Shown in pieces: positions 56,221-59,606 of a stretch of DNA of 64,000 bases. The position numbers and the translations under genes are program-made. A model generated the notes under the pieces. That model was not told the DNA's origin. It did no database searches and worked only from the letters and a program-made list of their open reading frames with translations. Origin of the DNA: Enterococcus phage VRE9_2; sequence record PP680568.1. One strand, given 5' to 3'. Each line of letters starts with the position of its first letter. Within the stretch, counting starts at the first letter, position 1.

Positions 56221-56632
56221 TGGTGGTCAGCATTAGGCTGGGTTCCGGCCGTGCGCGACCGGCCAAAAAATAACACCCCATTATGAGAGAATTCTAATTT
56301 TCACAAATTAAAATAACGGTTTTGGGATTTTGGATTTTTATTCATGTTATTGAATATTAATTCAAGAAGCTGAAAAGCCCGTCATATCAACGTTTTGGGG
56401 CGGTGTTATTTTATAAATTAAGTTTTTTCTGTTATTTTATGTTTTTTAGATAACAAGAGAGTTTTAATTTTTCACAAACTATTATTAAAAAATAACAAAA
56501 ACATTATTAGAAATTTCTAATTTTCTAATTTTGAGAAAAAATTGATTTTCAGAAAATTTCATGAAAACTTTCAAAAATATTTTCATTTTCATAGATTAAA
56601 AAATAGTGAGATTTCTCTCACTATTTTCTTAT
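56221..56632 (+). ncRNA. noncoding module A: GC hairpin + AAAATAACA/TGTTATTTT and TTTCACAAAC repeats + terminal terminator hairpin; candidate sRNA gene or origin element
   Basis: CCGGCCGTGCGCGACCGGCC hairpin then AAAAAATAACAC; repeats; terminator AATAGTGAGAtttCTCTCACTATTTT at 56602-56629; no ORF. Confidence 0.4.
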
Positions 56633-56635
56633 TTC

Positions 56636-57394
56636 TTAATTTTGAAAACTTGCTTCAAAATCTTTCATGTTAATTTCAGAAATTTTTTCAGAATGAACTT
56701 TCGTAGGGATACGCCAACACATTCTATTAATTTTCCGATTCATTTTTTTGTGTTGTTTATAACACCATGCCATTATTGCCGTTTCTATATATACATCAGC
56801 TAGACCAGTATGTTCTTCTACAAAATCGGTTGTTTTCATCATCCAATTATAGGCTACTTCTGCATTAGTTTTCAGATTGCCAGCTTTTGAGTAGTAACCA
56901 TTTTCAAACGCCCACTTTGGAAAACTTTTTTGTGAAAAAATTGTTTGGCAAGCCATATGCCAGATACAATTTATTTCTAAATTTTTTCCTACTTCATAAG
57001 GGAAGAAAAATGGATAATTTGTTAATTCTTGCCATGTATTATTTAAGGCTTTAACAAAATCAAAATAAGCGTTATATGCTGCTACCGTTTTGATATTGTA
57101 TTTTTCTATAATGTTTAAAATAACTCTTCTTACATATCTAAAAGGCTTCACCTTCATAATTCCTTGAGAAATTTTTTCACGATATAAAGGCAATTTTGTA
57201 TAATAATAAGCGCTACGCATTAAAGCATCATCGTCAAAAATTTCTGAAATTGCGAACGAATGTTCTTCATAGATATTGCCTTTTTTGTCAGCTACCACAA
57301 AGCCCACATCATAACATAATGGATTTTTTTCAACGTCGCCGGCTGTTTCTACATCTAATACTAAAATATATTTTTTTCTTTTGTCAATTTTCAT
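56636..57394 (-). CDS. DEDD-family 3'-5' exonuclease-like protein (paralog 1)
   Basis: ILVLDVETAGD (Exo I DxE) near N-terminus, YNAYFD (Exo II); 252 aa. Confidence 0.6.
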   Translation of the reverse strand: MKIDKRKKYILVLDVETAGDVEKNPLCYDVGFVVADKKGNIYEEHSFAISEIFDDDALMRSAYYYTKLPLYREKISQGIMKVKPFRYVRRVILNIIEKYNIKTVAAYNAYFDFVKALNNTWQELTNYPFFFPYEVGKNLEINCIWHMACQTIFSQKSFPKWAFENGYYSKAGNLKTNAEVAYNWMMKTTDFVEEHTGLADVYIETAIMAWCYKQHKKMNRKINRMCWRIPTKVHSEKISEINMKDFEASFQN

Positions 57395-57476
57395 GCTTAC
57401 TTTTCCACCTTTTTAATAAAATATTTTTTTTGAAAAAATTAAAGGCTAGGTTTTTACGCCTAGCCCTAGACGTTTC

Positions 57477-57866
57477 TTAGATAATTTTGTAGCCCACTTT
57501 TTTCTTGTCACTTGTTGCAATTCCTTTTTCTAAAATTCCTTGTTCTACTAGACCTTTTAAGCGTGGGGTCATTTTTTGCGGTGTGTAATCGAACTCTAAA
57601 GCTTCATTGACTTCTTGACTTGTGTAAAATGTTTCTGTGTCTGCTTCTTCAAAGAACCATTCTTGAATTTTTTGCATATCTGCAATTTTTTCTTTATTGG
57701 TCTTGCTTTGGCTAGGTTTGCGGTTAGCGTTACGTTTTTGAGCTTGTTCGCCTTTTTCTACTACAAAATCAATGACTTCTTGTGGTGCTTTCACGTTTGC
57801 CAAGATACGAGCAACTTCTGCAAATTTTTCAGCTACGACTAGTTTTTCAAATTGTGTTTTTTCCAT
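57477..57866 (-). CDS. small protein, TPxxL..KKYKVK-tail family
   Basis: MEKTQFEKLVVAEKFAEVARILANVKAPQEV...TPRLKGLVEQGILEKGIATSDKKKVGYKII; RBS-start TTTAAAAAGGTGGAATTTATCATGGAAAAA identical to that of the 63437 start. Confidence 0.55.
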   Translation of the reverse strand: MEKTQFEKLVVAEKFAEVARILANVKAPQEVIDFVVEKGEQAQKRNANRKPSQSKTNKEKIADMQKIQEWFFEEADTETFYTSQEVNEALEFDYTPQKMTPRLKGLVEQGILEKGIATSDKKKVGYKII

Positions 57867-57922
57867 GATAAATTCCACCTTTTTAAAATTTTGTTAGTAA
57901 GTTGTTCCCTTACTACTCTTTA

Positions 57923-57951
57923 AGTATAAACGATTTTCAATTATTTTGCAA
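57923..57951 (-). promoter_or_regulatory. promoter TTGCAA-17-TATACT for 57477..57866
   Basis: minus strand reads ttgcaaaataattgaaaatcgtttatact. Confidence 0.5.
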
Positions 57952-58030
57952 GTCTTTTTTTGCTTTATTAGAAAATTCTCATTTAAGCTTAAAGAGTAAC
58001 AAGTGAACTTCCCTCTTAAGTATACCATAC

Positions 58031-58155
58031 TTTTTTTAACTTTGCAAGTATAAAGTTTATTTATTTTTCAAAGAACTTTTTGCAATCTCTTTCCTTATCT
58101 CTAATACTATTATAATAAATTTGAAAAGAGATTGCAAGTATAAAGTTTTAAATAA
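58031..58155. repeat. two copies of TTGCAAGTATAAAGTTT (plus partial third at 57943); candidate operator sites
   Basis: aactttgcaagtataaagttt at 58033 and agattgcaagtataaagtttt at 58127. Confidence 0.5.
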
Positions 58156-58774
58156 TTTTATCAATCGTAATTTTTTTGATGAGTGTTTCAAGTGTTTGTT
58201 TTGTTGGTTCTACTAATAAGCGATAATCAGCATGTTTAAATAATCCGTAATCGCTCGCAGTATCTCCCCAAGCCTCTATATAACTATATTCATTTGTATT
58301 TATATTCCACTGAATGCAGTCATCTTTTTGTGATTCTGAAAACATACCGTTAACCTTTCCAGTGAAACAATCGTCAGCTTTTAAATATTCTGTCGCATGA
58401 TATGAACAACCTAAAAAGTTAGCTAAATGCTTAATTAGAAAATCGCTTGAGCCTGTAACAAGAACAACTTCAAAGCCTTGTAAAATTTTTTCTTTTAAAT
58501 CGTTTAAAGTTTCATACCAATTTTTTTCATCTTTCAAAAATTGAGAAACAAACTCTTTTGCGTGCATTTCTTTTTCTGTTTTTCCTGTTATCTCGTTACG
58601 ATAGTTTTCAGCAACGGCAACAATCAAACTTTCATTCTTAACATCTTTTTTCCATGCCTTATAAGAACCGTCATCTTTGATAATTCCTTTTTCAATTAAA
58701 AAACCCGCATGAGATAAAACAACGCTCTTTCTTGTAAGTGTTCCGTCTACATCTGTTAAAATTAAATTTTTCAT
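58148..58774 (-). CDS. HAD-superfamily phosphatase
   Basis: LILTDVDGTLT (DxDxT motif I). Confidence 0.65.
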   Translation of the reverse strand: MKNLILTDVDGTLTRKSVVLSHAGFLIEKGIIKDDGSYKAWKKDVKNESLIVAVAENYRNEITGKTEKEMHAKEFVSQFLKDEKNWYETLNDLKEKILQGFEVVLVTGSSDFLIKHLANFLGCSYHATEYLKADDCFTGKVNGMFSESQKDDCIQWNINTNEYSYIEAWGDTASDYGLFKHADYRLLVEPTKQTLETLIKKITIDKII

Positions 58775-58879
58775 TTCTTTTATCCTCCCTTTATCTTATA
58801 TACTTATTATAGGGGATAAACGATAAAAAGTAAAGCATTTTACACATTAAAATTATTAAAGTTTAATGAGAATTGTTTC

Positions 58880-59280
58880 TAATTTACACACAATTCGCCA
58901 GGCGTTATTTTATAATTAAATAACAGCTTTTCTTTGAACACATGTTATTTTATAAACTTGTAAGCGCTTACAAACTGCGTCAGATCAAGCTTTCAATAGA
59001 TTTTCAGAAATTTTCATTGTTGTTTCAATAACAAGCAAAAATTACATGTGAAATAATTCACAAACATAAAATAACACCCAAGAGGAGAAAAAATAACACA
59101 CTTTGACTTGTGCGCACATTCACATTCTCTTGCTCTCTTGGAATGAAAAGGCTGTGAAAGCTTGGTATAATAGGCTTTCTGATTGTGAAAAAATTCACAT
59201 GCACGGACTTTTGGGATATTAAAATAACATTAAAAAACAATTAAATAACAAGCCAAAAACTTGACAGGGATAAAATAACA
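58880..59280. repeat. iteron field: >10 copies of AAAATAACA / TGTTATTTT 9-mer in both orientations
   Basis: e.g. cgttattttataattaaataacag, tgttattttataaac, ataaaataacaccc...aaaaaataacacac, aaaataacattaaaaaacaattaaataacaagcc, ataaaataacacag. Confidence 0.6.
59247..59278 (+). promoter_or_regulatory. promoter TTGACA-17-TAAAAT directed into module B
   Basis: ttgacagggataaaataacacagtaaaat then GGCGCTCGCC hairpin. Confidence 0.45.
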
Positions 59281-59606
59281 CAGTAAAATGGCGCTCGCCA
59301 GCGAGCGGCCGAAAAATAACGTCCTCTATTTGTTATTTTATTCATTTCACAAACTTTAGTTTCAGGATTCTGTTATTTTATTTTTGAAAATCAGTTTTCA
59401 ATTTATGAAAATGAAAATGAAAGCTTGATACATCAAGGTTTTGGGAACCTCGCCCCGCAATGTTATTTTATCTTCTTCCTTTTGGACTGTTATTTTATTT
59501 TATACATTTCACAAACTTCACTTTTAAAATAACACGTATTTCTTTGTGAAATTTTTCACAAGTAAAATTAAAAAAAGATGAGAAAAATCTCATCTTTTAT
59601 TTTTAT
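59281..59606 (+). ncRNA. noncoding module B (paralog of module A): GC hairpin + iterons + terminator; candidate ~320-nt sRNA
   Basis: GCGCTCGCcagcGAGCGG hairpin then GCCGAAAAATAACG; ATCAAGGTTTTGGG..GCCCCGCAATGTTATTTTA parallels ATCAACGTTTTGGGGCGGTGTTATTTTA in A; terminator AAAGATGAGAaaaaTCTCATCTTTTATTTTT. Confidence 0.45.

Follow-up and report, generated by a model that had tools for sequence, protein, structure and literature searches.

The 64,000-nucleotide stretch of the genome of Enterococcus phage VRE9_2 analyzed here (PP680568.1; hereinafter the window) contains two non-coding regions, which we denote B and C, that are densely populated by copies of a short motif, ATWAAATAACA, which we call the A-box, and a third such region, A, lies beyond the window and is seen in the complete genome of the related phage H1. 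The distribution and conservation of the A-box point to a recognition site of a sequence-specific DNA-binding protein, and the three regions are, judging from their sequences, conserved non-coding control hubs, region A being placed where the early gene block starts. The reading that we tentatively favor is that the A-boxes form operator-type arrays which would gate promoters embedded in these regions, together with boxes that resemble the sites of host regulators. The architecture is previously undescribed; the kinds of element of which it would consist, operator or iteron arrays, are already known.

The window comes from an Enterococcus phage genome of ~138 kb that belongs to the EF1/EF5/H1 group; its 55.5-60.5 kb portion is 91-93% identical to the corresponding DNA of five Enterococcus phages (H1, EF1, EF5, VRE9_3 and VRE9_4, 134-142 kb each). 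EF1 and EF5 have been set apart as a group of their own among the enterococcal phages (PMC6435515), and it has been suggested that the EF1 group possibly belongs with or near the SPbeta-like and phAss-like phages (PMC10607447). In the non-coding stretches of these five phages, only hypothetical CDSs are annotated, and the papers found to cite the accession numbers of the group's records describe no origin, regulatory circuit or non-coding element. In the window, the plus-strand genes stop at 56060 and are followed by a terminator (56065-56085) that belongs to a gene for a 389-aa protein, convergent with the genes beyond the gap. From beyond 64000 down to 56636, the minus strand carries a series of small early genes, all of them preceded by sigma-A promoters close to consensus; the last genes of this block encode a HAD family phosphatase, a winged-helix protein and an exonuclease.

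A preliminary description of this DNA reported, between 56260 and 59540, a dense field of a 9-mer in both orientations with more than 20 copies. The field is real and non-random, and the number of core copies in it comes to 19. The exact 9-mer, AAAATAACA, occurs 17 times on the two strands of the window, compared with a mean of 4.55 and a maximum of 10 in 100 dinucleotide shuffles, and 14 of these 17 copies fall in 56267-59534. The 8-mer AAATAACA is found 22 times in the window, with 10.07 copies expected, and 16 of the 22 reside in ~850 bp of non-coding DNA (56268-56497 and 58918-59534). In the complete H1 genome, the same 8-mer is present 26 times in the three non-coding regions (2.5 kb in total) vs 11 times in the other 135 kb, an approximately 120-fold enrichment. 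The simplest alternative, namely that such a motif would be equally frequent throughout a genome with a G+C content of only 31-32% and the field accordingly a compositional artefact, can be considered already refuted, given this enrichment within 2.5 kb, the failure of any of the 100 shuffles to reach the observed count, and the retention of the site positions across lineages.

The 19 copies of the core AAATAAC are divided between the two non-coding stretches of the window. Five of them belong to region C (array at 56268-56497; cores at 56268, 56311 and 56490 on the plus strand and at 56405 and 56431 on the minus strand), a 500-bp non-coding gap with a convergent terminator on either side. The remaining 14 belong to region B (array at 58904-59534; plus-strand cores at 58918, 59069, 59091, 59222, 59243, 59273, 59314 and 59527, minus-strand cores at 58904, 58944, 59332, 59372, 59462 and 59489), which is contained within 800 bp of non-coding DNA upstream of the HAD gene. 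The copy positions listed originally hold to within ~10 bases; five of the copies (56311, 58904, 58917, 59242 and 59313) are 8/9 matches, and the one placed at 56357 is a degenerate sequence, TGTTATTGA, at about 56347. As had been noticed, the copies surround three genes: all of them are located in the non-coding DNA that flanks the HAD, winged-helix and exonuclease genes.

A weight matrix derived from 68 instances yields the full 11-bp motif, with no information outside these positions. The A-boxes stand alone, irregularly spaced and in both orientations; in region A, which fills the 1 kb that separates the late structural genes from the first early gene, the sites are paired as 18-bp palindromes of the form AAATAACA-NN-TGTTATTT. 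There is no regular tandem array, with TRF detecting only tiny local ones, no partner of the A-box at a fixed distance, be it a -35 or any other element, and not a single copy of the motif in the second divergent gap of the window (18830-19278). A scan of viral contigs for the A-box palindrome matched a single related contig, and a search of 185,579 genomes with the palindrome AAATAACANNTGTTATTT produced matches in scattered taxa, with no Enterococcus among the matches listed. Two other explanations of the motif were discarded. A larger dispersed repeat or a mobile element was rejected because BLAST comparison of regions A, B and C detects only shared motifs of 12-28 bp. A phage-specific promoter, or the -10 element of an alternative sigma factor, was considered on account of the resemblance of TGTTATTTT to an extended -10; however, no element is found at a fixed distance, the motif copies do not precede genes, and they are missing from the rest of the genome.

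To assess conservation, relatives of the phage (designated here by L numbers) were collected through a search with the winged-helix protein; in these, the gene order is the same and the motif occupies the homologous gaps. The winged-helix orthologs are 71% (L016 and L017), 52% (L020) and 48% (L014 and L015) identical to the protein from the window, and all these relatives carry A-boxes in the homologous regions, with the region C array conserved in L014, L016 and L020. Region B is alignable end to end across lineages, from the terminator to the promoter, and among three lineages 83% of the A-box columns are invariant vs 39% of the remaining spacer columns; for the other named motifs of this region, the invariant fraction is 72-89%. 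In L014, 13 of the 14 A-box positions of region B are retained. Nucleotide identity between the window and L014 is 71% in region B and 62% in region C, compared with 76% for the exonuclease gene, 72% for the HAD gene, 63% for the winged-helix gene and 44% for the neighboring gene of the 389-aa protein. The regions are thus as conserved as the coding genes of the group and, by implication, mark cis-elements on which the phage depends. The enrichment, the cross-lineage alignment and the invariance of the motif without covariation together bear out the view that the field behaves like an array of protein-binding sites under selection.

Part of region B is nevertheless variable. The otherwise 91% identical L005 (IMGVR_UViG_3300045988_176702) has 36 bp in place of the 628 bp at 59204-59831, a stretch that encompasses 9 A-boxes, the promoter P_B described below, a GC hairpin, one terminator and an ORF of 56 aa. 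From the sequence comparison, the difference represents a naturally occurring deletion or insertion polymorphism, which indicates that the phage does not depend on this half of region B or that this half is redundant.

The invariance of the A-boxes also bears on the level at which they are recognized. RNAalifold applied to the plus strand of region B builds stems from inverted A-boxes, yet the pairs never vary, and at this divergence compensatory changes would be expected if pairing was selected; the invariance without covariation therefore favors recognition of the sequence itself. Accordingly, A-boxes as RNA stems were rejected. DNA binding likewise accounts better for the presence of the motif in both orientations and in palindromes whose halves are 2 nt apart. 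A function at the RNA level, with the motifs in ORF-less transcripts of regions B and C serving as stems or being bound by an RNA-binding protein, as in a sponge RNA, would be compatible with the conserved promoter and terminator that enclose ~300 nt without a conserved ORF and with the covariation in a GC-rich element of region C (see below). We consider it highly unlikely in view of the two orientations, the 2-nt spacer of the region A palindromes, the stems that never covary and the lack of a match to any Rfam family: in the window, Rfam detects only tRNAs, and nothing credible at 55900-59900.

The principal reason to favor operator arrays is positional. Region B contains a sigma-A promoter, P_B (TTGACA-N17-TAAAAT, 59261-59289, plus strand, 11 of 12 consensus matches), that is directed away from the flanking genes, with one A-box in its spacer (59272-59280) and a second one ~10 bp upstream of its -35 (59243-59250). 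The -35, the spacer A-box and the -10 are invariant in the window, H1, L016 and L014. Between P_B and the terminator at 59573-59598, there is no conserved ORF; a mini-ORF in region B (ATGAAAATGAAAATGAAAGCTTGA) was dismissed given that it is not conserved as coding in the alignment. A GC hairpin, GGCGCTCGCCAGCGAGCGGCC (59290-59310), which adjoins an A-box, starts directly after the -10 of P_B, so that the predicted transcription start is inside the hairpin; it shows one compensatory pair between the window and L014 and a weak minus-strand terminator score. The same region includes an extended -10 promoter, TGGTATAAT (59163-59171, plus strand), and in region A of H1 an A-box palindrome overlaps an extended -10. 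With several A-boxes in operator positions of conserved sigma-A promoters, regulation fits at least as well as an origin of replication, and it is this direct positional support that leads us to favor the operator reading.

Several observations weigh against it. Most A-boxes overlap no detectable promoter, and region C, situated between convergent terminators, has no flanking gene to regulate. About eight strong early promoters at 59.8-64 kb have no A-box, so the binder would not be a general early repressor. L018 has an ortholog of the winged-helix protein and a region C nearly devoid of A-boxes. In distant relatives identified through the exonuclease (37-49% identity), other abundant 9-10-mers populate long non-coding stretches near the same genes (in IMG/VR, 18 copies of TTATGTAAAC in L007, and 20 and 12 copies of TTGCACAAA in L008 and L009, respectively), and a crude comparison of the recognition helix with the motif in these relatives reveals no clean correlation. 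Finally, the invariance of the motif across lineages with ~50% protein divergence would be equally compatible with a host factor of fixed specificity. As separate observations on these distant fields, three copies of TTGCACAAA in L009 are located 8 bp upstream of the -35 CTTGACAAA, with a similar arrangement in L008, and a 2.7-kb stretch of L008 has no ORFs of at least 60 aa.

The protein encoded between the two arrays of the window (57477-57866, minus strand, 129 aa) is a plausible candidate for the A-box binder. Originally described as a winged-helix-turn-helix-like protein with a TPxxL tail, it is indeed predicted to possess a C-terminal MarR-like winged helix: a Foldseek search with its AlphaFold2 model (pLDDT 84.7) retrieved the winged helices of ZitR, MepR and MarR over the C-terminal ~66 residues (rmsd 2.3-2.9, probability 1.0, E-values from 2e-3 to 3e-2). 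No match to any Pfam family, including the MarR families, to NCBIfam or to an annotated PHROG was detected. The segments best conserved among the orthologs are the predicted recognition helix (TPQKMT..LK) and the wing (ATSDKKKVGYK). The window encodes at least five paralogs with this winged helix, others including those at 63003-63437, 60924-61373, 36174-36578 and 19278-19643. The adjacent gene (56636-57394, minus strand) encodes an exonuclease of the DEDDh (DnaQ-like) type, in agreement with the initial assignment; the motifs LDVETAG, YNAYFD and HTGLAD can be read from its translation, and a PHROG link connects it to polymerase exonuclease subunits. The pair of winged-helix and exonuclease genes (56636-57866) is duplicated at 62190-63449 in the early block and is kept in distant relatives, which suggests that the two proteins work together. 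The third gene (58148-58774, minus strand) was recognized from the start as that of a HAD phosphatase and can be assigned to the HAD-IB family.

Under the operator reading, the binder would be phage-encoded and probably one of the MarR-like winged-helix paralogs, multiple bound copies could assemble into a higher-order complex by which the promoters embedded in the regions are gated, and host regulators that report the redox and nutrient state may share in the gating. The output would be either non-coding transcription alone or the firing of an origin activated by transcription.

The involvement of host regulators is suggested by palindromes that resemble their operators and are interspersed with the A-boxes. 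With the Rex operator consensus TTGTGAAN4TTCACAA (PMC8376106), three sites with at most one mismatch were detected vs 0.08 expected: ATGTGAAATAATTCACAA (59046-59063), TTGTGAAAAAATTCACAT (59183-59200), which is located just downstream of the extended -10 promoter at 59163-59171, and the perfect palindrome TTGTGAAATTTTTCACAA (59544-59561), which is conserved in all lineages. In H1, six Rex-like sites (at most two mismatches, three of them perfect) are found in regions A and B, with one weak match elsewhere, and in region A such a box overlaps the -35 of a promoter. A perfect cre-like palindrome, TGTAAGCGCTTACA (58959-58972), matches the CcpA consensus, TGWAANCGNTNWCA. The exact 14-mer occurs three times in H1, in each case in regions A and B (two copies in A), and in region A of L014 the cre consensus is present four times, alternating with A-box palindromes. 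CodY-box-like sequences are located at 56544-56558 (GATTTTCAGAAAATT, one mismatch to AATTTTCWGAAAATT) and at 58999-59013 (two mismatches), and an ARG-box-like palindrome, TGAATATTAATTCA, at 56351-56364; the ARG-box-like TGAATWWWWATTCA has four matches in the H1 genome, all in regions A and C. In H1, the Rex-, cre- and ARG-box-like matches are restricted almost entirely to the three non-coding regions and the early genes that separate these, which does not hold for the CodY-like matches. Region A of L014 additionally includes Cheo-box-like sequences of the CGAACATATGTTC type and LexA-box-like sequences. No boxes for CtsR, CIRCE, Fur, PerR, GlnR, CopY, DnaA or PurR were found in the regions scanned. 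Taken by themselves, these sites would make the three regions hubs that read or soak up host physiology through operators of Rex, CcpA, CodY, and ArgR-like and LexA-like regulators, a possibility that we regard as doubtful.

Somewhat less likely still is that the A-box itself is the operator of a host regulator, the regions being sensors of host physiology or decoys that titrate regulators during amplification of the phage DNA. Several features speak for this explanation. The motif stays invariant across phage lineages with ~50% protein divergence, the A-boxes lie amid consensus-grade host operator sequences that are found almost nowhere else in the genome, the distant relatives with other motifs may have other hosts, and the palindromic TAACA-NN-TGTTA resembles a PrfA/Ers-type box of the Crp family. 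However, no known enterococcal regulator has such a consensus, literature searches on the motif, the cre palindrome, the Ers/PrfA box in Enterococcus and phage VRE9_3 found nothing, and lone 11-bp half-sites would be unusual for dimeric host regulators.

The main competitor of the operator reading is a replication origin, in which the A-boxes would be the iterons of a phage initiator, clustered around the initiator gene in the manner of phage P4 or of a bacterial oriC, and the embedded promoters would provide origin-activating transcripts. We consider an origin possible and nearly as likely as operator arrays, and the two are not mutually exclusive. The satellite phage P4 has two cis-elements, ori and crr, with octamer type I iterons in both orientations, to which the alpha protein binds through its winged-helix domain. 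The similarity consists in short (8-11 bp) direct and inverted sites that form separated clusters flanking the gene of a winged-helix protein; unlike in P4, the protein is 129 aa long and has neither a primase nor a helicase domain, the clusters number three instead of two, and the regions also contain promoters and host-regulator-like boxes. In the bipartite oriC of Bacillus subtilis, clusters of DnaA boxes are located on both sides of dnaA, and here, too, asymmetric boxes of the 9-mer type, irregularly spaced and in both orientations, make up two non-coding clusters around a gene; unlike in B. subtilis, the A-box differs from a DnaA box, an AAA+ initiator was not detected and no unwinding element stands out clearly. 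In lactococcal phages such as c2, the origin is located in non-coding DNA that separates early from late genes and gives rise to an untranslated transcript. By analogy, the non-coding location, the repeats and the predicted promoter with an ORF-less transcript might be compared with such origins, although there is no sequence similarity.

Clustered repeated sites, as expected of an iteron-type origin, are present (19 in two clusters in the window and 26 in three in H1). The short irregular sites in both orientations, in clusters 2.3 kb apart around the winged-helix gene, a third cluster between the divergent early and late gene blocks, the predicted ORF-less transcripts from conserved promoters, the adjacent DnaQ-like exonuclease gene and the reduced stability of 56400-56600 (~1.7 SD below the window mean) are all compatible with an origin. 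The replication origin or partition site suggested in the preliminary description stays a hypothesis, which several results do not support. DnaA boxes are absent from regions A, B and C, although 54 matches of the TTATCCACA type (at most one mismatch) are scattered over the H1 genome; there are no regular tandem iterons with a period of ~20-22 bp, the spacing being irregular; no initiator family (Rep, alpha, RepA_N or Rep_3) was recognized in the adjacent gene; no plasmid similarity was found; the replication genes of H1 are ~70 kb away; and no marked unwinding element stands out, with the arrays outside the 15 least stable 100-bp windows and region B of average stability. The proposal is further weakened by the close natural relative without 59204-59831, and hence without 9 of the 14 A-boxes of region B.

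Two more comparisons involve other large phages. In the first-step-transfer DNA of T5, untranslated repeat regions with DnaA boxes are situated in the long terminal repeat (Davison, bioRxiv 10.1101/866236). Similarly, the present group has three conserved non-coding regions of direct and inverted repeats and palindromes among early genes, including sites that match host DNA-binding proteins, and the arrays bracket an early block with a nuclease, a DNA-binding protein of small size and a nucleotide phosphatase, functions analogous to those of T5 A1, A2 and dmp. By this purely functional analogy, the arrays might be a signal for DNA entry or DNA ends, which seems very improbable: the host-like sites resemble Rex, cre, CodY and ARG boxes instead of the DnaA boxes of T5, which regions A, B and C lack, and nothing places genome ends or a terminal repeat at the arrays. 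A parallel from regulation is SPBRE, a ~15-bp element bound by MrpR, which acts as master repressor in the Bacillus phage SPbeta (PMC10516654). This too is a repeated intergenic element of a large Firmicute phage and the site of a phage-encoded regulator; unlike the A-boxes, of which ~26 are concentrated in three regions with the early promoters free of them, SPBRE is found at the promoters of ten dispersed genes.

Apart from the A-boxes, region C includes a GC-rich element of ~130 nt (56152-56279, plus strand), conserved in five lineages within the convergent gap, with covarying helices, a hairpin at 56245-56264, a conserved TAGCGTGGTGG block and a 3' closing strand that overlaps the first A-box (56267-56275). 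In the alignment, 84% of the cells are paired vs 77% in shuffles and 33-54% in slid controls, and the covariation score of 0.271 (vs 0.167) was reached by none of 500 shuffles. Many of the pairs are G-U, which favors the plus strand. The element has no Rfam match and may be a new structured RNA or a single-stranded DNA signal. Region C is bounded on the side of the exonuclease gene by a terminator hairpin 3' of that gene (56600-56627), and region B by a bidirectional intrinsic terminator (59573-59598) conserved across lineages. A conserved module, GAAAGCTTGATACATCAAGGTTTTGGG, is present in region B (59419-59445), with a second, inverted copy in region C (56378-56400). A minus-strand promoter at 56123-56151 (TTGATT-N17-TGTTATAAT) is directed into the 3' end of the convergent gene of the 389-aa protein; this promoter, whose conservation extends to the window group, L014 and L018, would yield an antisense or very short transcript.

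Between the HAD and winged-helix genes, the repeat TTGCAAGTATAAAGTTT was initially placed at 58033 and 58127 and interpreted as operator-like. It does occur twice, at 58042-58058 and 58132-58148, and the partial third copy that had been noticed is TTGCAAGT at 57946. On the minus strand, the repeat reads AAACTTTATACTTGCAA, and each copy, including the partial one, provides the TTGCAA -35 of one of three tandem sigma-A promoters (58137-58109, 58047-58019 and 57951-57923, minus strand; N17 spacers, -10 TATAAT or TATACT), which, as predicted from these elements, drive the operon of the winged-helix protein and exonuclease; L014 has a comparable tandem set. The repeat is more simply explained as a duplicated -35 region, and an operator role, although possible, is not needed to account for it. 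One of these promoters is overlapped by a long inverted repeat of AT-rich sequence (TTGCAATCTCTTT ... AAAGAGATTGCAA, 58073-58148), which is located just 3' of the HAD stop codon and produces a spurious microRNA match in Rfam. Elsewhere in the window, 17 tRNA genes are clustered on the plus strand (35475-44836), with small ORFs between them. Among the relatives, L018 and L019, Logan contigs from two samples, end equally far upstream of the winged-helix gene, with identical gene coordinates, a hint that a repeat boundary or an end of the genome might be located there in that lineage.

The EF1/EF5/H1 group is nearly uncharacterized, and its members are now being isolated on vancomycin-resistant E. 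faecium. Identification of the protein that binds the A-boxes would disclose the origin of this phage family or else one of its master switches. Sites of operator grade for Rex, CcpA and CodY, as predicted here, suggest a direct link between the metabolic state of the host and the development of the phage, which is probably virulent. Should the three regions indeed be hubs for host physiology, the redox, carbon and nitrogen state of the host would gate the non-coding transcription and origin firing of the phage or, alternatively, the amplifying phage DNA would titrate host repressors and so reprogram host metabolism. The regions are also relevant to the engineering of therapeutic phages, in which they should stay undisrupted.

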